Counted from the stretch's first letter, positions 9,075 to 30,354 are shown. The stretch is DNA of 30,354 bases from a virus (UHGV-0236227); one strand, 5' to 3'. Program-made: numbers and translations. The notes: a model not told the origin generated them from the sequence alone.

Positions 9075-9151
9075 GTGGCATTAGCTCAGTTGGACAGAGC
9101 AACCGCCTTCTAAGCGGTTGGTCGCAGGTTCGAATCCTGCATGCCACGCCA
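9075..9151 (+). tRNA. tRNA-Arg (anticodon UCU), phage-encoded
   Basis: 77-nt cloverleaf folded by hand: 7-bp acceptor stem GTGGCAT/ATGCCAC, D-arm GCTC-AGTTGGACA-GAGC, anticodon stem ACCGC/GCGGT with loop CTTCTAA, T-arm GCAGG-TTCGAAT-CCTGC, encoded CCA end. Confidence 0.9.
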
Positions 9152-20898: not shown

Positions 20899-21147
20899 AT
20901 GAAAGGTGCATTAGGTAAGAAAGAACTCCTGGCGGTGGTGCCACTGTCATGGAGCACTATCGACCGTATGGAGCGCGCAGGGGAATTTCCTAAACGCTGG
21001 TATATCACCGATAAACGCTGCGCATGGAACCGTGATGAAGTTGAGCGTTGGCTTGATGAACGTCAGGCAGCAAGCCCGGCAGAGTTCCAGGGTAAAAAGC
21101 CTCCTGTTCAGCAACGTGTATATCGTCCCGTGAGCAACGCTGCATGA
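20899..21147 (+). CDS. AlpA-family HTH protein (excisionase / transcriptional regulator candidate)
   Basis: 82-aa ORF with AlpA-like segment (LSWSTIDRMERAGEFPKRWYITDKRCAWNRDEVERW). Confidence 0.6.
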   Translation: MKGALGKKELLAVVPLSWSTIDRMERAGEFPKRWYITDKRCAWNRDEVERWLDERQAASPAEFQGKKPPVQQRVYRPVSNAA

Positions 21148-21556: not shown

Positions 21557-22199
21557 GAAATACACACTAATCTATGCAGATCCACCCTGGGTATACCGGG
21601 ACAAAGCCGCAGATGGTAATCGCGGTGCCGGTTTTAAATATCCGGTTATGAGTGTGCTGGATATCTGCCGCCTTCCTGTGTGGGATTTGGCCGATGAAAA
21701 CTGTCTGTTGGCCATGTGGTGGGTGCCAACACAACCACTCGAAGCACTAAAAGTTGTTGAAGCCTGGGGATTCCGTCTGATGACGATGAAGGGCTTCACG
21801 TGGATAAAATGTGGTAGTCGACAACCAGATAAACTGGTTATGGGTATGGGACACATGACTCGCGCCAATAGTGAAGATTGCCTGTTTGCGGTAAAGGGAA
21901 AACTACCTACGCGCATTAATGCAGGGATCGTTCAGTCATTTACCGCACCGCGGCTTGAGCATTCAAGAAAGCCAGATATCGTTCGTGAAAAACTTGTGCA
22001 ATTATTAGGCGATGTTTCTCGCATTGAACTGTTCGCCCGCCAGACGTCTCATGGCTTTGATGTTTGGGGTAATCAGTGCGAAGACCCGGCAGTGCAACTA
22101 CACCCTGGATACGCGTTGGATATTGGCGTATTAACAAATGCATTCAGCAATGCTCCGCTGTCACCAACAGACATCCAGGGGCGGGAGCGTGCTGCATGA
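21549..22199 (+). CDS. MT-A70-family DNA N6-adenine methyltransferase
   Basis: 216 aa from ATG 21549; catalytic DPPW motif in LIYADPPWVY. Confidence 0.8.
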   Translation: MTKKYTLIYADPPWVYRDKAADGNRGAGFKYPVMSVLDICRLPVWDLADENCLLAMWWVPTQPLEALKVVEAWGFRLMTMKGFTWIKCGSRQPDKLVMGMGHMTRANSEDCLFAVKGKLPTRINAGIVQSFTAPRLEHSRKPDIVREKLVQLLGDVSRIELFARQTSHGFDVWGNQCEDPAVQLHPGYALDIGVLTNAFSNAPLSPTDIQGRERAA

Positions 22200-22390
22200 A
22201 CAGGGCATCACCAGCAGATTTAAGAAAATGCCTTGAAACTGCAAACATGCTTGCACACAGCGGGATCAGGTTTGTTCCAATTCCCGCTGTCACTGATGCT
22301 GAATTTGCAACACTGTCAGCAATATTCGAAAACAAAATTGAATCACTGGCAGCAGAAGCAGAGATGGAAGAAAATCAGCAGAACTATTAA
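22196..22390 (+). CDS. Small hypothetical protein translationally coupled to the methyltransferase
   Basis: 64 aa; ATG overlaps the methyltransferase stop (ATGA). Confidence 0.4.
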   Translation: MNRASPADLRKCLETANMLAHSGIRFVPIPAVTDAEFATLSAIFENKIESLAAEAEMEENQQNY

Positions 22391-22393
22391 ACG

Positions 22394-23644
22394 TTATTCC
22401 CCCGCCATCCACTTCTCAAACTTCGACGGGGAGAACGGAATCAGATCCGTATGCTCCCCGTCAATCCATGAATCAATCATATCGGCCCACTGCTGCAACA
22501 TGTAGGCGCGCTGTCTGGCGTATTCCGCTTTGTTATATACGGCGCGCACACCTTTCTGCTCATGTGCCAGAGCCTTTTCAATCCAGTCTGAAGGATAACC
22601 AGCCTCATGCAACAACGTACTGGCTGTACGGCGCATATCATGTACAGTGAAGTCCTGAATATGCTCACCATCTTCATTTATTATTTTCACCGTTCTGTCG
22701 ATCAGAGAGTTCAGCGCGGCATTAGATAATGGCTTCCGGAAATTGTAACGACCAGGAACCAGATATTCACTTCCACCAGCGCACATCTGCAACCCGACCA
22801 ATATATCCTGTGCCTGTTTAGGCAGGTAAATAACGTGCGCCCGGCTTCCCTTCATGCGGTCTGGAGGAATTGTCCATGTCCATTTTTTAAAATCTATTTC
22901 ATCCCACGTTGCATTGGTGAATTCGCCCTTACGAACCATAGTGATAAGCACCAGTTTTAAAGCCATTTTCATAGTGCCCATAGCACCAATGGCATCCAGC
23001 GTGCGGAAGAACAGGCCAATTTCTTCTGGTGTCAGTGTTCGCTCTCGTGGTTTAAATATGGCGATAGACGAAGGTTTAATGTCAGCCGCAGGATTAAACA
23101 AACCATGACCACGGTCATTGGCGTGACGGTATACGCTACTGATGATCTCCCTGGCCTGCACTGCTGTTGCCCGGCCACCGCGTTCGACAATCCGGTCACA
23201 CAAATCACGAACCATCGATGTGGTAATTTCAGCCATCATTTTATTGCCAAGAACCGGAAGTATGTCACGGTCGATCACCGCCTGTTTCATTGCGCGGGTA
23301 CTGTCAGCCAGGATGACGTGTTTCATATAACTGTCGGTATGTACCGCAAACGTCTCGGCACCACGAATCTTTTTGATACCGTCACGTTTAGCCGCAGCCG
23401 GTGACTGGCCTGCTTTAAGCAGCTTCTTTGCAGCAATCAGTTCTTCTCGCGCTTCTGCCAGGCTGATACCGTCACGCCCATACTGCCCGATTACCAGTGT
23501 TTCGCGGCGACCGTTGATACGGTAGTCATAGCGAAACGAGACCGTGCCTGACGTAAGCACAGCTACATACAGCCCGTCACGATCGGAGACCTTGTACAGT
23601 TTGTCCTGCGGCTTGAGGTTTTTTAATTTTGTATCGGTAAGCAC
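22394..23644 (-). CDS. int: Tyrosine integrase (P4-like, Arm-type N-terminal domain)
   Basis: 416-aa ORF (GTG start); N-terminal LTDTKLKNLKP...YKVSDRDGLY motif; C-terminal catalytic region (HDMRRTASTLLHEAGYP). Confidence 0.9.
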   Translation of the reverse strand: MLTDTKLKNLKPQDKLYKVSDRDGLYVAVLTSGTVSFRYDYRINGRRETLVIGQYGRDGISLAEAREELIAAKKLLKAGQSPAAAKRDGIKKIRGAETFAVHTDSYMKHVILADSTRAMKQAVIDRDILPVLGNKMMAEITTSMVRDLCDRIVERGGRATAVQAREIISSVYRHANDRGHGLFNPAADIKPSSIAIFKPRERTLTPEEIGLFFRTLDAIGAMGTMKMALKLVLITMVRKGEFTNATWDEIDFKKWTWTIPPDRMKGSRAHVIYLPKQAQDILVGLQMCAGGSEYLVPGRYNFRKPLSNAALNSLIDRTVKIINEDGEHIQDFTVHDMRRTASTLLHEAGYPSDWIEKALAHEQKGVRAVYNKAEYARQRAYMLQQWADMIDSWIDGEHTDLIPFSPSKFEKWMAGE

Positions 23645-23686
23645 AATTCACCCGTATAGAAACCATTTTCATGACGGTATGAGAGT

Positions 23687-23701
23687 ATACCTTTAAGGTA
23701 A
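23687..23701. promoter_or_regulatory. ATACC-N5-GGTAA palindrome (putative operator) upstream of int
   Basis: ATACCTTTAAGGTAA, 43 bp upstream of the integrase start. Confidence 0.4.
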
Positions 23702-23754
23702 TACCGTCACCTGTACCGACGAAAAATATGGTGTATAGTGAATAGAAATGAATA

Positions 23755-23788
23755 CATAAAAACAAAAACCCTCTGTAAAAACAGAGGG
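23755..23788 (-). terminator. Intrinsic terminator after the lysis cassette
   Basis: CCCTCTGT-aaaa-ACAGAGGG hairpin with a U-rich tract downstream on the minus strand. Confidence 0.55.
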
Positions 23789-23938
23789 TTAAATTAGTAT
23801 CTGAATAGGAATGAGTTGCTATGAGTTAGCTGTTAATCATTCCCACTCAATTATTTACGATAACCATAACCAATTGAGTGATAACATTTTTCCAAATCTC
23901 AATTTTTCCCGTACCGTTTTATATACCGTCACCGGAAA

Positions 23939-24436
23939 TCAGTGCCACGATTTTTGCTTCTTCAGTGAATCGTATTGCTGCTCGCAGAATTCCCCTGCGA
24001 TACGATACTTTTCAGCCTCAGCTGCTGTTGCGTTGTAAACTCGGTTGCTTTCTTCAAGCATGTCGGCGAGCACACCGATGACCTTGCTGGCTGGCGTGCC
24101 AGGGGGGAAAGATCCGGTATAGTGTTCGGCGAGCCGCCTGGTTTTGTCAAGCTCGGCGCGCATGCTGTCAGCAGCGGAATTAGCATACTCAGCATCAGCA
24201 CGCGCCGCATCGATACGGGATTGTGCTTCACGTTCAATTTGTGTTTTCTCCTGCTCACGCTGTGACCTTAACTTATCATCAGCCTGTTTCTGATCTTCCT
24301 TCGCCTGAGCATACCCGGCATCGTACTGGCGACTGCCGTGTATATTCCAGGCAACCACTCCTGATATGACCAGAACAGCAAGCACTGCCACGATAAGCAA
24401 CTGTTTCCAGTATGCTTTTACGAATGCCCAGATCAT
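23939..24436 (-). CDS. Rz-like i-spanin
   Basis: 165-aa ORF with N-terminal transmembrane segment and charged coiled-coil-like periplasmic part; ATGA-coupled to the endolysin. Confidence 0.7.
23962..24210 (-). CDS. Rz1-like o-spanin (lipoprotein) embedded in the Rz frame
   Basis: From internal ATG 24210; lipobox-like LLTAC followed by a Pro-rich segment; entirely inside Rz in another frame. Confidence 0.55.
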   Translation of the reverse strand: MRRVLMLSMLIPLLTACAPSLTKPGGSPNTIPDLSPLARQPARSSVCSPTCLKKATEFTTQQQLRLKSIVSQGNSASSNTIH

Positions 24437-25062
24437 ACCGCCAGCACCTTACTGGCAGTGATGTACCGCGCTCGCCGGTCGTCGATGCCGTTCCGGCCAC
24501 CATTGATAATCAGAGTTACACGTGCAATATCGCCGGTATACTTCATGCATCCTTTGCTGGCGAAGAACCACGCCGCGCTACGAGCCGCATATTCGTCCTG
24601 CGCCAGCAGTTCAGGGCTCTCCAGCAGGTCAACCTTCAGACCGTTTCCGCAATCACGATAGTTATTCAAACCGGTAATCTGGATAAGTCCGCGCCCTCGG
24701 TAATTCCAGCCATCACCAGGGGCATTGTTCCCCATGCGTTTGCTGTATACCAGATTTGCGATCGCGCGCTGGCGCTCAAGTGGCAATGGTGGTTCACCAG
24801 CACGGCGCCCCAGTGCATTAGCCTGCCCCTGAGTGAGACGCCCAGCCCGAACGAAGTTAGCCAGTCCGCTGACACTGTAGTTGAAATTCTCCTGCAACCT
24901 GGTGAAGCCCCCAGACTCATGCCCGACTTGAGCAATAAACATTGCCTGATCTTCTGCTTTGCTGATACCAAACTCTTTCATCGCAGAAGTTATATGCGAG
25001 AACCAGCGTGCGGCCAGTGCCTCGCTGATACCAGCAGCTCGCTGGAATTGTTTAATCTCCAT
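24433..25062 (-). CDS. Endolysin, glycoside hydrolase family 19 (chitinase-like) type
   Basis: 209 aa from ATG 25062 (GAGG Shine-Dalgarno); GH19-like motifs ([24 protein letters not shown]); track ORF extends 55 codons further upstream. Confidence 0.75.
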
Positions 25063-25360
25063 GTTTAGACCTCGATACTTTAAAAATTTGAACGACGTTA
25101 CCGCGCGTTTTAATAACCGCAGCCAGCATGACAGCGTTGATAATGACCTCAGATAAATCCACAGCCATTGGCGTACGTAACCAGATTGCATAGGCGACTC
25201 GAACAGGAATACTGGCCGCAGCAACAATCAGGAAATAAGCAAGCCATCCTCCCCACCTTCGATGTTGAGAGCCGTTACGCCGGAATGTGACAACGCGAAT
25301 TGCTATGCCAGTGCAAATAACTGCATTGGTGATAAGCAAAAAAAACTCATGCGTTACCAT
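25052..25360 (-). CDS. Holin-like membrane protein (second holin or antiholin candidate)
   Basis: 102-aa hydrophobic ORF between the holin and the endolysin, overlapping both. Confidence 0.5.
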
Positions 25361-25751
25361 CGTCTTTTCTCCCCGGAATTAACTCGCGTGGATTATCGGA
25401 ACGGTGATAGAGCCATATACCAATACGCACAGCGACAATTGCTGACACGAATGCGCCTGCAGAGAAAACAATCCCTTTTTCAAAAGAGTCCTGCGTGATG
25501 GTAGGGATCAGGCTGGCTATGCCGATAAGAATTGATGCTGCTGGTTTGTAAAAGAGAAGGCCGCAAAGAAAGCTGAGCATCGACAGGAGCACCCGGCGAC
25601 GGATGGGGTACTCTACTGCAGAGGTAACAAAAATTACCGCCCCAGCCAAAGCCCCTAAAGCAACCTCCGGAGGGGCACCTGCAATAACCGCAGCAAGAGA
25701 ACTAAAACTAAGCAACTGATTTAATTGCTCACTTGTTACTTGAGCAGACAT
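25347..25751 (-). CDS. Holin
   Basis: 134-aa ORF with several hydrophobic segments; first gene of the lysis cassette. Confidence 0.6.
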   Translation of the reverse strand: MSAQVTSEQLNQLLSFSSLAAVIAGAPPEVALGALAGAVIFVTSAVEYPIRRRVLLSMLSFLCGLLFYKPAASILIGIASLIPTITQDSFEKGIVFSAGAFVSAIVAVRIGIWLYHRSDNPRELIPGRKDDGNA

Positions 25752-25925
25752 ACTTTCTCCTGTTTACTATCTATAAGCCAGTCAATTATTGATGACTAAA
25801 CCCGCATAGTAAACCATATATGAATCATTATTGTTCCATATCATATATCTCAATAAAAGTACTAATGATTTTACAGAACGAGCCAGCAGAGTGGGGGCAG
25901 TTGTACAGGAACCATAGACTTAATT

Positions 25926-25954
25926 TTGTATTTAATAATGCTATGGTGTAATAA
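25926..25954 (+). promoter_or_regulatory. Candidate sigma70-like promoter (TTGTAT-17-TAATAA) in an AT-rich spacer
   Basis: Hexamers read directly; a plus-strand terminator lies about 100 bp downstream. Confidence 0.3.
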
Positions 25955-26032
25955 ACCTGAACATGTATTTAAAATACGTACTGATTCATGATAGAATTCA
26001 AAGATAACTTTTCACAAACTCCGTTTTTGATA

Positions 26033-26058
26033 CCCGCAAAATATTGCGGGCTTTTTTT
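26033..26058 (+). terminator. Intrinsic terminator (CCCGCAA-aata-TTGCGGG plus 7 T) at the 3' end of the tailspike gene
   Basis: Canonical only in the plus orientation; the T-run overlaps the tailspike stop codon. Confidence 0.5.
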
Positions 26059-29000
26059 AACGTTCTTCCAGAGACTGAATCCGCTCTTTTATCTTATCCA
26101 TTTCTCTGCGCTGCCATGCTGCCTCGATATAGAATAAGAGATCAGGCCTGACCCCCCATCTAGATCCTGCTGGCGTTATTTCAACGCGCTCAATGATGTC
26201 TTCCATTACCATCACTGGATTATCATCCTCATCAACAATGATGCTCCCGTCATTATCAGTCAGCGGCATTTCCCTTTGGCCAGTAATGACGTCATCATAT
26301 ACTGCGGGATAATCGTCATAGCAAAGAAAGGCATAGCGGCATGTTGTGCTTTCTTCTTCCATGAGTCCGTGAGAAATAAGAACATCACGAAGTTGCTGCG
26401 CGATTACACCATGATGTATCCTCGCCCCTTCTTCCCCCTTTATAGCGACAGCGTTCAGCCATTTATAAGCGATATACCTGACGTCACCCCAGGCATCCAG
26501 CAATGCTTCGTCAGGAGAGACCGGCTCTGTCTTTAATGTTCCGTCACTGGTAACCACAGGATTGGAGCCAAGATAAACTGTCGAGAACCTGTTTCCCGGA
26601 CCACCAAGAGCATTTACATTATCAAGATAAGGTTTAACATCTCCGTTCTCAAAAAGATGTTCGAGTGCGTTATATACCGCGCGACGTGGAGTACTGCTTC
26701 CGGAACCATGCAACGTTATCATTGCACCATCTGCTGAAGACGTTGTTTCACCGCCGCTAACGATTAATCTCTGAGCGGTAACATCATCAGACGGTACTTT
26801 CTTCGCAATAATGGCGTAATTACCCTCAAGTTTGACTTCCGCGCGAACTTGTCCTGATGTACCTGCATGGACAGTCAGTGACTGGACGGCAACATCATCT
26901 GTGAAATCAACGGGTACAGGAACCGTCCTCACGCCTGACGTCGACATAAAAGTAGGAAGCGTTCTGTTAGGAGTGGCTCCGTAGACAAAATCCCTTGAAA
27001 CAAATTCTTCCTGTTTGATTTTCACCCTGAAACAATATAAATCAGCCGGGTGACCATCGTGAACATAAGGATATTTTCTGTTGTTATCCCCTATGCTCCA
27101 TGGGTTTAGAAAGTCTTCCCCACCGAAAATGTAGTACAGCCAGTTGTCTTTGATACAAACTGAACCAACACCAACCGCAGAGTTAACTATTCCGCCCTGA
27201 TAAATCTGATCAGTAACATTAACCCACTCTACATTATCCAGACTCCACTCATTGACGTTAACTCTGGTCATAAATGTTCTTGGATAATTTCCTGCATAAC
27301 GGTTATCAGGTTCTCCTCCTTCCCACTCACCAAATGCGCGCTCACTGCCAAAAATAATCAGCTCATCGCCAACTTTGGCAAAAGGAAGGTTTGAGTGATG
27401 AACATTATTTGGGAAGCGAAGAGAATTCCATGATGTACCTAAATCAGAGCTTCTGTGCAATGAACTACCGGGTTGAGTACTTAATGTCCCCCTGGTCGTC
27501 AGATACAGAATGCCATCATAATATTTTACACATGGCTCAGATGCATTCGCCTCATATTCTGCAGGTATGCGTCTGCGAACAAAGCTACCAGGAGAACCGA
27601 AAGCATCAGAGAAATAGAGTATCCCAAGCTCGCGTGGACCAATATCACCATTATGGTAGCCAACAGCAAAACTGTTATCGCTAATCGTCGCAAAACTGTG
27701 AATCTCAGTAACAGGAGTGCTTCCGTCAACAAAAGAAGGAATAGTTCCAAGACTGGTTTTTCTCCATGGTGACGAGTGAAATGATGTACCAAAACTCCAG
27801 TATCTACCCTCGTTATTCTGATCCACATCCTGGGTATTTTGCGTCGTAACTGTAAAAGTATTTTTATCAATAACAGTAGTCACCGTCATATTCCCGGTAA
27901 CACCTGTAACACCAGAGTTTGAGAAGTTGACAAAATCACCAGCAAATAATCCGTGATCAGTAATGCGAATATAAGCGACTTGCTGATTTGCTGCTTTCGT
28001 TATACCACCATAAGCGCGAAGGCTGCGACTCATTGGGCGATCCCACAACTCTGCAACCTGCAGTTTATTTCCGCTCACGGTCCGCGTCTCAATTACAGCA
28101 AAAAGGCGATTTCTGACAACCCCCATACTCATGCAGTGATAGTTAACTGTGGGATAGTTTTCATGTAAATCTGTAAGCCATTCCGGCGTTGTCCAGGTCT
28201 TCCCGTCATCTCCTGAGCGAACCCATGCAACATGGAGGTTATTTACACCATGGCGGTCTCCAGCCATAAAAGGCGCATAGATGACATTGTCATATACAAA
28301 CGTTTTATCCTGCGTCCAGGCGTTGTACCACGGTGTATCTGTAATTTTAAATAACTCTCCCTGGATAAAATCTTCAGAAGCATAAAAAAGAGGCTGGCCC
28401 GGTATTCTCTCAAATAAAAAACGAGCATTTTTAAATCGACTGACATCCGGAAGAGTTGATACTTTAAAAGTAAGCCCTAATCCGTCAATTTTATAACCTG
28501 GAGATGAGGCTTCAAGGCACGCGCTTATTGCAGTGGAATCGTCATTTATACCATCACCAACAGCTCCAAAATCTTTGGGGCTAATAGCATCACGCATTTT
28601 ATCCTGGAACGTTCGGTACACAGCCCCAGAACCATACTGAATAAACCAACCAAAACCACCAACAACCCCGGCGATTGCAGCATCGACATAATTACGCATT
28701 GAGCGATTATTTACAGCGTCCTGCTCAAATGATGGATCTGCAAGGTTAGAAATTTTGTTTTGCTTTGCATCGTAATATTTTGCAAGCAAAGATGGTTTCA
28801 TCAATGCACGTCTGAACCACCCAAAACATTGCTGGATCAGCATCGTCAGGTAGTCAAAGGCATCTTCATGCACTTCTGGGAAAAATTTTCCCTGATTGCG
28901 AAGGTCTGTCTCCTGCACTACATCAAGCACACGATCTATCGTAATTCGCCATCCAGTAGCAAGCGGAGACGGAAGAACCACAGAACCGCCACTATAAGTG

Positions 29001-29176
29001 CCCGCCCCAGTTACCGTATAACCGGTATCCAGAACCAATTCTGTTACGTTTCCGTTCAGGTCAGACACCTGAACAACCAGGTCTGATTTTCTGAAAATTC
29101 GAAAAGTATACGGAAACGATGTCGTAACGCCGTTACCTGTGTATTCGTTGTGGTCAACTTCGGTTGAGACCGTCAT
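26057..29176 (-). CDS. Tailspike / tail fibre with T7 gp17-like N-terminus, Asp-box beta-propeller-like centre and C-terminal intramolecular chaperone domain (endosialidase-like)
   Basis: 1039-aa ORF with GGAG Shine-Dalgarno; N-terminal particle-binding-like region; two Asp-box motifs (SGDDGKTW, SSDLGTSW); DFGAVGDG-type motif; C-terminal chaperone-like tail. Confidence 0.8.
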   Translation of the reverse strand: MTVSTEVDHNEYTGNGVTTSFPYTFRIFRKSDLVVQVSDLNGNVTELVLDTGYTVTGAGTYSGGSVVLPSPLATGWRITIDRVLDVVQETDLRNQGKFFPEVHEDAFDYLTMLIQQCFGWFRRALMKPSLLAKYYDAKQNKISNLADPSFEQDAVNNRSMRNYVDAAIAGVVGGFGWFIQYGSGAVYRTFQDKMRDAISPKDFGAVGDGINDDSTAISACLEASSPGYKIDGLGLTFKVSTLPDVSRFKNARFLFERIPGQPLFYASEDFIQGELFKITDTPWYNAWTQDKTFVYDNVIYAPFMAGDRHGVNNLHVAWVRSGDDGKTWTTPEWLTDLHENYPTVNYHCMSMGVVRNRLFAVIETRTVSGNKLQVAELWDRPMSRSLRAYGGITKAANQQVAYIRITDHGLFAGDFVNFSNSGVTGVTGNMTVTTVIDKNTFTVTTQNTQDVDQNNEGRYWSFGTSFHSSPWRKTSLGTIPSFVDGSTPVTEIHSFATISDNSFAVGYHNGDIGPRELGILYFSDAFGSPGSFVRRRIPAEYEANASEPCVKYYDGILYLTTRGTLSTQPGSSLHRSSDLGTSWNSLRFPNNVHHSNLPFAKVGDELIIFGSERAFGEWEGGEPDNRYAGNYPRTFMTRVNVNEWSLDNVEWVNVTDQIYQGGIVNSAVGVGSVCIKDNWLYYIFGGEDFLNPWSIGDNNRKYPYVHDGHPADLYCFRVKIKQEEFVSRDFVYGATPNRTLPTFMSTSGVRTVPVPVDFTDDVAVQSLTVHAGTSGQVRAEVKLEGNYAIIAKKVPSDDVTAQRLIVSGGETTSSADGAMITLHGSGSSTPRRAVYNALEHLFENGDVKPYLDNVNALGGPGNRFSTVYLGSNPVVTSDGTLKTEPVSPDEALLDAWGDVRYIAYKWLNAVAIKGEEGARIHHGVIAQQLRDVLISHGLMEEESTTCRYAFLCYDDYPAVYDDVITGQREMPLTDNDGSIIVDEDDNPVMVMEDIIERVEITPAGSRWGVRPDLLFYIEAAWQRREMDKIKERIQSLEER

Positions 29177-29280
29177 GTTAAATCTCCAGATAGTCGCAGC
29201 ACCCGTTGCGCCGCATATCTGGTTATTCTATTACCTGAAAAACCACATATGGATAGAAAGACTGTAAATATGAATAGATA

Positions 29281-29295
29281 TTACCTTTCAGGTAA
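29281..29295. promoter_or_regulatory. TTACC-N5-GGTAA palindrome (putative operator) in the divergent tailspike / small-ORF region
   Basis: TTACCTTTCAGGTAA, identical to the site at 8738..8752. Confidence 0.45.
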
Positions 29296-29332
29296 TTTGC
29301 AAAACGTGCTGGATAGCAAACAAATTATTTGC

Positions 29333-29352
29333 TACTGTATAAATATACAGTT
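29333..29352. promoter_or_regulatory. LexA (SOS) box
   Basis: TACTGTATAAATATACAGTT, i.e. CTGT-N8-ACAG with AT-rich spacer; 21 bp upstream of the small-ORF ATG. Confidence 0.6.
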
Positions 29353-29372
29353 ATTGCATGGAGAAGATTAAG

Positions 29373-29630
29373 ATGCAGCAGTATCACTATCCACTGGAAG
29401 ACGGATTTACCGAAAGGATTCACACGCCGGGAGGCGTCAGGTCACTGGTGGAGGGATCGCACTTGATGAAATTACTCCGGGATCTCGATAAGGATGGATT
29501 TAATGTCGATGGCCCACTTGCCGAACTGACTGCACTGATTAACTACGTCACCAGCTCACAGATGTCTATGCAGGATCTGCAAACACATCTCGACTATTGT
29601 GCCGAACAATTACGAAAGCAAACCAGATAA
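29373..29630 (+). CDS. LexA-controlled small protein (Tum-like antirepressor candidate)
   Basis: 85 aa from ATG 29373 with GGAG Shine-Dalgarno at 9 nt (track start 29358 lies inside the promoter region); LexA box immediately upstream. Confidence 0.5.
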   Translation: MQQYHYPLEDGFTERIHTPGGVRSLVEGSHLMKLLRDLDKDGFNVDGPLAELTALINYVTSSQMSMQDLQTHLDYCAEQLRKQTR

Positions 29631-29661
29631 GGTTTGCAATTACCAAGTGGAGTGTTTATTA

Positions 29662-29676
29662 TTACCTTTGCGGTAA
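29662..29676. promoter_or_regulatory. TTACC-N5-GGTAA palindrome (putative operator)
   Basis: TTACCTTTGCGGTAA, 32 bp after the small-ORF stop. Confidence 0.45.
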
Positions 29677-29711
29677 ATTTACATCGAACTCCTCTTGTGC
29701 CATAGTAATCG

Positions 29712-29789
29712 GGCACTGGCAAAATCCAGTGCCGGGATTGGCGTCCCGGGTTACTAAGTGGCGCATACCACGCCAGACGTGGTTTTTTT
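29712..29789 (+). terminator. Structured RNA region: two GC hairpins, then an intrinsic terminator (29768..29789)
   Basis: GGCACTGG-N6-CCAGTGCC (29712..29733), CCGGGA-N6-TCCCGG (29732..29749), CCACG-N5-CGTGG plus 7 T (29768..29789). Confidence 0.5.
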
Positions 29790-29945
29790 ATGCGTTAAGC
29801 ACAGCTATATCCGAATTATGGTGGGCTGGGCAGGGGTCCGAAAGGACGCCGGTACCACTTAGGCCGGTACGCCAACCTTGTCCAGTTCACCACCAGTAAT
29901 TGGCGTTGCGGTGGTGATTAAAATCACTAAGTGGAGATAACCACC

Positions 29946-30354
29946 ATGGCTAATGCTCAAACTGCCATCTTCAAATTTGAATCTGTTAACCCTATCCGTT
30001 CCATCATTATCGATGGCCAACCATGGTTTGTAGCCCAAGACGTTTGTAGTGCGCTGCGTATCCAAAACGTCACCCAAGCACTTGAAAAACTGGATGATGA
30101 TGAAAGGTCTATGTTCAACATAGGGCATGAACATCGTGCAATTTTTGACAGCCGAGTAAAAGAGATCAACATTATCTCCGAGTCAGGCCTCTACACACTG
30201 ATCCTCCGCTGCCGCGACGCAGTGACACCAGGCACTATCCCCTACCGCTTTCGTAAATGGGTTACAGGTGAGGTTCTTCCTCAGATCCGCCGCACCGGAA
30301 GTTACATTAAAAACTCGCTCCCGCAGGAAGAACGCATAAAGATGGTTGCCGACC
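29946..30354 (+). CDS. Bro-N / AntA-family antirepressor (partial, runs off the window end)
   Basis: ATG 29946 with GGAG Shine-Dalgarno; at least 136 codons without a stop; Bro-N-like core (IIIDGQPWFVAQDVCSAL). Absent from the ORF track because no stop is reached. Confidence 0.75.
   Translation, partial: MANAQTAIFKFESVNPIRSIIIDGQPWFVAQDVCSALRIQNVTQALEKLDDDERSMFNIGHEHRAIFDSRVKEINIISESGLYTLILRCRDAVTPGTIPYRFRKWVTGEVLPQIRRTGSYIKNSLPQEERIKMVAD

Follow-up and report, generated by a model that had tools for sequence, protein, structure and literature searches.

The closest described relatives of this locus are phages that integrate at the 3′ end of guaA. For vB_EcoP_ZX5 (ZX5), attB, attL, and attR were amplified by PCR and Sanger sequenced and share the same 17-bp core, which sits 190 bp from the integrase gene's 5′ end; the attP sites of phiV10 and epsilon15 are stated to have this same core sequence (PMC9782041). 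In a survey of tyrosine recombinases, integrases that target the guaA 3′ flank form a defined “epsilon15 cluster” (PMC8138268). In KplE1, the attachment region overlaps the promoter of the integrase gene, so that IntS represses its own expression (PMC2951348). Because the ZX5 core is published (PMC9782041) and the epsilon15 record already annotates copies of ATACCGTCAC as integrase-binding sites, the attP and integrase described below were known before this analysis, as the attP/Int module with which Uetakeviruses integrate at guaA. Our additions are minor: a constraint on synonymous sites inside int, a terminator copied from guaA, a narrowed crossover segment, and a likely excisionase.

The window, by which we mean the whole 30,354-nt stretch of DNA that was analyzed, belongs to this group. 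Nucleotide matches to positions 22000-24500 came from phiV10, epsilon15, ZX5, TL-2011b, and phiv142-3, among others. Positions 1-25000 align with ZX5 and phiv142-3 at ~97% identity across 76-77% of their length (71-77% when TL-2011b is included), which is the similarity and synteny expected within Uetakevirus, and positions 25000-30354 align with ZX5 at 98.6% identity and 96% coverage. Very probably, int and its surroundings make up the integration module of a temperate podovirus in the genus Uetakevirus (phiV10/epsilon15 group; nearest relative ZX5), with a P4-like tyrosine integrase and a complex attP immediately upstream of its start codon. The window can thus be identified as a guaA-integrating, K1-specific, phiV10-like phage in unintegrated gene order.

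The int gene (22394-23644, minus strand; identified from its open reading frame and translation, Pfam, and PHROG) begins with GTG and encodes a tyrosine integrase of 416 amino acids, a match to the PHROG 1 integrases (E=1.5e-87). Pfam divides the protein into an N-terminal Arm-DNA-bind_3 domain (DUF4102; PF13356; residues 2-87, E=3.9e-20), a central core-binding Phage_int_M domain (PF22022; residues 113-190), and a catalytic Phage_integrase domain (PF00589; residues 204-375, E=1.4e-19). The solved homologous arm-binding domains 3ju0 and 3jtz match residues 2-94; a structure search with the C-terminal half returned spurious WD40 matches only. The catalytic motifs MVRKGE, HDMRRT, LAHEQ, and AVYNKA are all present, and from their positions and knowledge of the family, rather than from a structural alignment, we take R238, K265, H335, R338, H361, and Y370 as the putative catalytic residues. 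These residues, the arm-binding and core-binding domains, and integration at the guaA 3′ flank place the protein among the P4-like integrases, in the “epsilon15 cluster” of the IntSXT subgroup. Int homologs in the phage collection were either at least 79% or at most 35% identical, with none between, and a search of viral contigs for relatives of intermediate divergence likewise found none, all matches being 99-100% identical.

The initial annotation described a tyrosine integrase with phage genes on both sides and no prophage-host junction in the window, and the open reading frames and Pfam matches agree. Past the int stop codon, and converging on int, lie genes for a DUF1382 protein, an MT-A70 methylase, PerC, an AlpA-family protein, and RecT (Pfam). 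On the other flank, a 294-bp noncoding spacer separates int from the end of the lysis operon, which encodes DUF2514/Rz, endolysin, and two holins (Pfam); its last gene, at 23939-24436 on the minus strand, encodes an Rz-like spanin (Pfam DUF2514 and the annotation of homologous loci). Small open reading frames cross the spacer (e.g. 23811-24038, plus strand), and the alignment there shows indels and high variability. The gene order of the window is that of an unintegrated genome, as found in the virion or the circular form. The layout alone does not separate such a genome from the inner junction of a polylysogen, because E. coli GPEC1186, a tandem double lysogen with the order guaA-int...Rz-int..., has an intact attP between its two prophage copies and shows the same layout.

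We searched for lysogen junctions with positions 23400-24200 as the query against 5,426 complete E. coli genomes. Homologous DNA was present in 565 of them, and the match spanned the core in only 4, one of which is GPEC1186 with its intact chromosomal attP. Among the E. coli matches listed on the guaA side, all stop at query position 452 (window 23851), with guaA directly adjoining, as in IAI39; the second junction begins at query position 436 (window 23835), beside yfgI, as in EP91B. The interval between these limits, 23835-23851, is the attP core AATCATTCCCACTCAAT, a 17-mer common to the phage, the empty K-12 site, and both lysogen junctions. It is the reverse complement of ATT GAG TGG GAA TGA TT, that is, the last four codons of guaA, its stop codon, and 2 nt. 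In the tandem lysogen, the 17-bp core recurs at all three junctions, which is the shared core that characterizes a complex attP. Junctions at guaA were found in Klebsiella genomes as well. A genome-wide scan with the 17-mer showed the guaA end to be conserved in many phyla among the matches listed, and no empty guaA-end site in Salmonella or Klebsiella was among them.

These results bear out the proposal that the spacer beside int is attP: comparison of this interval with bacterial genomes, which the initial annotation had suggested, yielded both lysogen junctions in hundreds of genomes and the core itself, which that annotation had not located. The junctions map to this spacer, and the integrase is identical at 414 of 416 residues to that of ZX5, which was shown to integrate (PMC9782041). 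The spacer differs from that of ZX5 by 2 substitutions in ~300 nt, neither of them within the core or a motif copy. The earlier remark that no tRNA-like core is present is also correct, in that the target is the 3′ end of a protein-coding gene. A tRNA scan of the window found a single tRNA, tRNA-Arg at 9075-9151, far from attP, and a tRNA target was rejected.

A natural polymorphism in Klebsiella narrows the crossover further. In the K. pneumoniae lysogen MK422448, from which record we took the Klebsiella host flank sequence, guaA ends in GAG TAA, as compared with GAA TGA. The junction on the int side keeps the phage version, TCAT, in TCATTCCCACTCAAT, and the other junction keeps the host version, TTAC, in TTACTCCCACTCAAT. 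Only the 11-mer TCCCACTCAAT (23841-23851) is common to the two junctions, and we therefore infer that both strand exchanges take place within these 11 bp, a minor refinement of a known system.

The spacer was also reported to contain a terminator, and it does: a Rho-independent terminator on the minus strand lies between the core and int, with its stem at 23767-23790 followed by TTTGTTTTT. Judged by its sequence, it is a copy of the terminator that follows guaA in the host. The 27-mer AAAAACCCTCTGTAAAAACAGAGGGTT matches the guaA terminator at 25/27 positions in K-12 and 26/27 in K. pneumoniae, and none of 2000 shuffled sequences matched as well. The Rz/lysis transcript reads through the core as far as this terminator. 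Integration leaves the phage copy after guaA and the host copy after the lysis operon, and both transcription units therefore remain terminated, and insulated, before and after integration. The copy would accordingly appear to protect int, which it would shield in the lysogen against transcripts running on from guaBA and in the free phage against late read-through.

On either side of the core are the putative binding sites for the N-terminal domain of the integrase. The motif ATACCGTC occurs six times in the 30-kb window as compared with 0.43 expected, all within 23125-23930, and none of 100 shuffles reached six copies. Three spacer copies of the motif, one of them inverted, had been noted previously and are present at 23673-23680 (minus), 23701-23708 (plus), and 23923-23930 (plus), ~-167, -137, and +84 from the core center; that count was incomplete, as three further copies inside int had been missed. 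An extended 10-mer, ATACCGTCAC, is perfect at five positions, and 10 of the 37 window copies of the looser RTACCG fall in the same 800 bp. On the int-proximal arm, an inverted site, ATACCGTCAT, found by the motif scan at 23671-23680 (minus strand), overlaps the predicted int transcription start. It is followed by ATACCGTCAC at 23701-23710 and, 12 bp after it, by the degenerate site GTACCGACGA at 23713-23722 (both plus strand). On the int-distal arm, the order is reversed, with a degenerate GTACCGTTTT at 23911-23920 and ATACCGTCAC at 23923-23932 (both plus strand), so that tandem pairs with the same 12-bp spacing flank the core. The distal site at 23923-23932 stays with the lysis-gene junction in lysogens.

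Conservation highlights the same positions. We aligned the locus across eight phages (E. coli, Salmonella, Enterobacter, and Klebsiella), whose adjacent int sequence is 77-84% identical to that of the window (98% for phiV10). The longest invariant noncoding runs were 23836-23858, which comprises core sequence and TATTTAC; 23912-23932 (TACCGTTTTATATACCGTCAC), a 21-nt run that takes in the distal pair; and 23697-23709 (GGTAATACCGTCA), which covers the 23701 site. In the degenerate 23713 site, TACCG is invariant; the Klebsiella phages have a perfect ATACCGTC in this second int-side position, giving ATACCGTCAGGTATACCGTCA. The inverted site at 23671-23680 is less conserved, with one substitution in three of the eight phages. 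Six copies of ATACCGTC occur in a 49-kb Klebsiella prophage locus that serves as an independent case, every one of them at one of the two junctions or within the 5′ portion of int. The epsilon15 record annotates four ATACCGTCAC positions as integrase-binding sites: the equivalents of 23701-23710 and 23923-23932, and two inside int. The suggestion that the repeats are arm-type sites is thus supported by their position around the core, their retention across eight phages, and the arm-binding domain of the integrase, and we infer from these that the N-terminal domain would bind ATACCGTCAC-type repeats on both arms.

The copies inside int raise the possibility that the array does not end with the spacer. 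Two perfect copies of ATACCGTCAC on the plus strand, both annotated in epsilon15, were defined before conservation was tested: 23466-23475, which on the minus strand encodes R57-D-G-I60, and 23376-23385, which encodes R87-D-G-I90. A head-to-head pair, GTCGGTAT|GTACCG, lies at 23333-23346. Among the eight phages, few third-codon positions in the int 5′ region (683 nt) are invariant, namely 45 of 227 (20%), and the three longest invariant runs are GTCGGTATGTACCG (23333-46), the longest of all; TGATACCGTCAC (23464-75); and ATACCGTC (23376-83). All 5 synonymous positions are invariant in the head-to-head pair and all three in the 23466 site, and 9 of the 10 columns are invariant in the 23376 site. 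Third positions are invariant at 10/11 within the intragenic sites as compared with 35/216 elsewhere (Fisher p=3.7e-7, a value that is somewhat inflated because the 23333-46 block was chosen after its conservation had been seen). A further copy of ATACCGTCAC, deeper in the gene at 23123-23132 (minus strand), has 6 of 10 columns invariant and varies at three of its four synonymous positions; we rejected it as a functional site and regard it as probably fortuitous.

An alternative is that the intragenic copies are by-products of a repeated R-D-G-I peptide and have no function as DNA. Both perfect copies encode RDGI, and a third RDG(L) occurs at residues 22-25, but the synonymous positions of these codons are fixed against the 20% background, and the 23123-32 copy, which encodes a different peptide, is not conserved. 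The peptide is also not a requirement of the family, because residues 57-58 (RD) align to a gap in the solved homologous arm-binding domain. We therefore consider the by-product explanation unlikely, though the most credible of the alternatives, and the pattern suggests that the DNA motif, rather than the protein, sets the RDGI codons. Somewhat short of an even chance, in our estimation, is the reading in which attP as a functional unit, or an array for autoregulation by Int, would reach ~500 bp into the int open reading frame, with the sites imposing the RDGI peptides on the protein that recognizes them. The conserved intragenic sites all fall within int codons 1-104, at a distance of 370-510 bp from the core: 23466-75 is inside the coding sequence of the arm-binding domain, and 23376-85 and 23333-46 are at or just past its 3′ end. 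This distance exceeds that of classical attP arm sites, and the intragenic copies could serve regulation and not recombination. Arm-type sites held constant within the integrase coding sequence would be a modest refinement of a known system.

The initial annotation also mentioned an operator-like palindrome, without coordinates, and two inverted repeats in the spacer are candidates for it. The first, TGACGGTAT-N20-ATACCGTCA at 23672-23709, is formed by the inverted arm-type sites and brackets a candidate int promoter (23684-23710, minus strand), which was picked out by eye and is speculative: a -35 hexamer GTGACG (23710-23705), a 4/6 match contained in the 23701-10 site; a spacer of 15 nt; and a -10 hexamer TATACT (23689-23684), which is conserved and reads TATAAT in epsilon15. 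A promoter consensus scan of 23500-24050 found none, and missed this candidate because of its 15-nt spacer. Should this candidate promoter be genuine, binding of Int to its arm sites would repress int, as in KplE1. The second, CACTCAATTATTTA/TAACCAATTGAGTG, was found by a repeat scan (repeat at 23844-23880) and lies together with IHF-like sites (23844-23883 in all). One-mismatch matches to the IHF-like pattern WATCARNNNNTTR occur at 23845-57 (plus), 23867-79 (minus), and 23871-83 (minus). Such matches, with one mismatch each, cluster at 23779-23883, a pattern that is not enriched window-wide; ATTGA at 23873-77 is invariant in the eight phages, and the epsilon15 record annotates IHF sites at corresponding positions. 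To judge from these matches, the repeat is probably where the DNA bends between core and distal arm. In addition, direct repeats of TGAATAGRAATGA (23739-51 and 23802-14, plus strand) flank the terminator; their consensus, TGAATAGnnATGA, is kept at both positions in the eight phages, and they are candidate sites for an accessory protein.

The inverted repeats could instead act mainly as RNA, forming hairpins for RNase III processing or stabilization at the lysis transcript's 3′ end and the int mRNA's 5′ end. RNase III sites are annotated at the equivalent positions of the epsilon15 record, and the minus-strand RNA of 23755-23938 has a much stronger fold than its shuffles (z=-5.3), with z=-2.2 for the region of the int 5′ leader. 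The terminator supplies much of this fold energy, however, and the copies of the direct repeat cannot pair with each other. A purely RNA role for the 23844-23880 repeat is improbable because half of the phages carry an uncompensated substitution in its distal arm (AATTGACTG, facing the invariant core) that breaks the 23844/23880 stem. We give this explanation a small chance as the main role of the repeats; it is compatible with attP function and does not exclude it. It is most improbable that the ATACCGTC repeats are operators through which a transcription factor such as the AlpA-like protein, PerC, or the phage repressor controls int, and not arm-type sites: the inverted pair at 23672-23709 does bracket a conserved -10-like hexamer and AlpA-family proteins serve as both regulators and excisionases, but copies lie on both sides of the core, the one 84 bp beyond it parts from int on integration, the immunity and early regions of the window have zero copies, Int carries a dedicated arm-binding domain, and on both arms the tandem sites are 12 bp apart, a spacing like that of known arm-site arrays.

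With the repeats read as arm-type sites, a mechanism can be proposed for integration. The arm-binding domain of Int would bind ATACCGTCAC-type sites on the int-side arm (23671-23722) and the lysis-side arm (23911-23932), and the conserved copies in the first 310 bp of int would probably be bound too. IHF-like sites beside the core would bend the DNA, and the core-binding and catalytic domains would pair the 17-bp core (23835-23851) with the guaA 3′ end and exchange strands inside TCCCACTCAAT. After integration, int lies beside guaA and the lysis genes beside yfgI, with guaA left intact because the phage supplies identical last codons and the stop codon. The int promoter is probably located between the inverted arm sites, in which case Int would act as a repressor of int. 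Excision probably depends on the AlpA-like protein of 82 amino acids (20899-21147, plus strand; Pfam Phage_AlpA), a candidate recombination directionality factor that matches PHROG 66, “excisionase and transcriptional regulator” (E=2e-16), and is by this family assignment the likely excisionase.

In practical terms, the core, arm sites, terminator, and likely excisionase now have exact coordinates, and the analysis has little importance beyond correct annotation. The refinements could nonetheless help in designing a minimal attP for vectors that integrate at guaA.

Compared with known systems, the locus is nearest to ZX5, and also to phiV10 and epsilon15, which belong to the same genus and have an identical core (attgagtgggaatgatt) and the same target at the guaA 3′ end. 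Relative to ZX5, the 3′ end of Rz is a different variant and the spacer carries its 2 substitutions; we saw nothing functionally distinct. The integrase-binding sites annotated in epsilon15 are the ATACCGTCAC sites present here, including the two inside int.

As in lambda, arm-type repeats (putative here) flank a short core on both sides, IHF-like sites (likewise candidates here) occupy the stretch from the core to the arms, and the integrase is bivalent with an N-terminal arm-binding domain, a feature known here by sequence. The arm-site distances in lambda attP are comparable to the ~-167/-137 and +84 seen here. Unlike in lambda, int has its 5′ end at the site and is transcribed away from attP, and its promoter would therefore lie inside an arm. 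The arm-binding domain (Arm-DNA-bind_3) is of another Pfam family, integration is targeted to the end of a protein-coding gene, extra conserved sites reach ~500 bp into int, and the candidate excisionase is AlpA-like and unlinked to int.

The resemblance to P4 and KplE1 (IntS-TorI) extends to the P4-like integrase with its DUF4102-type arm-binding domain, to the int promoter (a candidate here) that lies partly within the attachment region and remains next to int in the prophage, and to a recombination directionality factor (again a candidate here) that is AlpA/Vis/TorI-like and encoded elsewhere. By analogy with KplE1, negative autoregulation of Int would be expected (PMC2951348). P4 and KplE1, however, target tRNA genes, whereas the target here is guaA. 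In the latter respect, the phage is like CMGI-3, GIsul2, and streptococcal ICEs, which also use the highly conserved guaA 3′ end as attB (PMC8138268), although they are genomic islands or ICEs and not podoviruses.

The terminator between the attP core and int (window 23767-23790) is a near-exact copy of the guaA terminator. It was compared with two bacterial comparison loci, L006 (2907-2933) and L132 (about 43665-43692), and the host guaA terminator agrees with it at 25 of 27 positions in E. coli and at 26 of 27 in K. pneumoniae. The host-derived sequence in attP therefore exceeds the 17-bp core. On either side of this terminator lies one copy of the direct repeat TGAATAGRAATGA (23739-23751 and 23802-23814, 63 bp apart), and both copies are kept in all eight of the aligned phages. 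Within the second copy, the left end of the core recurs in inverted orientation as GGAATGA. These direct repeats may be sites for an excisionase or an accessory protein.

Among the matches listed, exact copies of TCATTCCCACTCAATGG, the 17-mer at the 3′ end of guaA, come from more than 120 species (bacterial contigs, comparison loci L012-L131), and the taxa carrying it span Actinomycetota, Clostridia, Bacteroidales, Pseudomonas, and cyanobacteria. Its presence in so many species accounts for the repeated use of the guaA 3′ end as an integration target. Separately, we observed that a Citrobacter sp. (L026) and Tatumella punctata (L028) are nearly identical over approximately 95 nt right behind the guaA stop codon, despite belonging to different genera. 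Their common stretch, within the first 100 nt or so downstream of guaA, includes a different terminator, AAAAAAGCCCGCAGTTACGCGGGCTT. Another guaA-integrating element, one that likewise brings its own terminator, probably has its junction here.

An intact attP was found in only 4 of the 565 genomes with a match. Among them, at guaA, is a tandem double lysogen in E. coli GPEC1186 (L134, NZ_CM142789.1 4395000-4444900), which has an intact attP between its two prophage copies; the integrase proteins of both copies are identical.

Within the N-terminal region of Int, the peptide RDG(I/L) occurs three times, at residues 22-25 (23574-23581), 57-60 (23466-23475), and 87-90 (23376-23385). Two of the three copies use identical codons, and these codons make up the arm-type motif. 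The solved homologous arm-binding domain, 3ju0, has no counterpart of Int RD 57-58, which is an insertion relative to 3ju0.

Immediately past the last arm-type site, we noted a mosaic breakpoint at about 23940-23990, in the 3′ end of the Rz/DUF2514 gene. The variant in the window is also present in Phi05_2388 B, Phi05_1999 B, and GPEC1186, while a second is found in phiV10, ZX5, and epsilon15 and a third in Tyrion, PAT1, and BUCT711.

A tRNA-Arg with anticodon TCT (9075-9151, plus strand) lies within the structural/terminase region, and a tRNA-Arg is also annotated at the equivalent position in a Klebsiella prophage and the GPEC1186 prophage. The tailspike ORF (1039 aa; 26057-29176, minus strand) matches siaK1, the K1 endosialidase tailspike gene of the P22-like phage CUS-3, at 99.4% over 2.4 kb; the phage in the window is therefore a K1-capsule-specific phiV10-like phage. 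ZX5 has this tailspike as well, and from the sequence match it looks like a receptor-binding module swapped between unrelated podovirus lineages.
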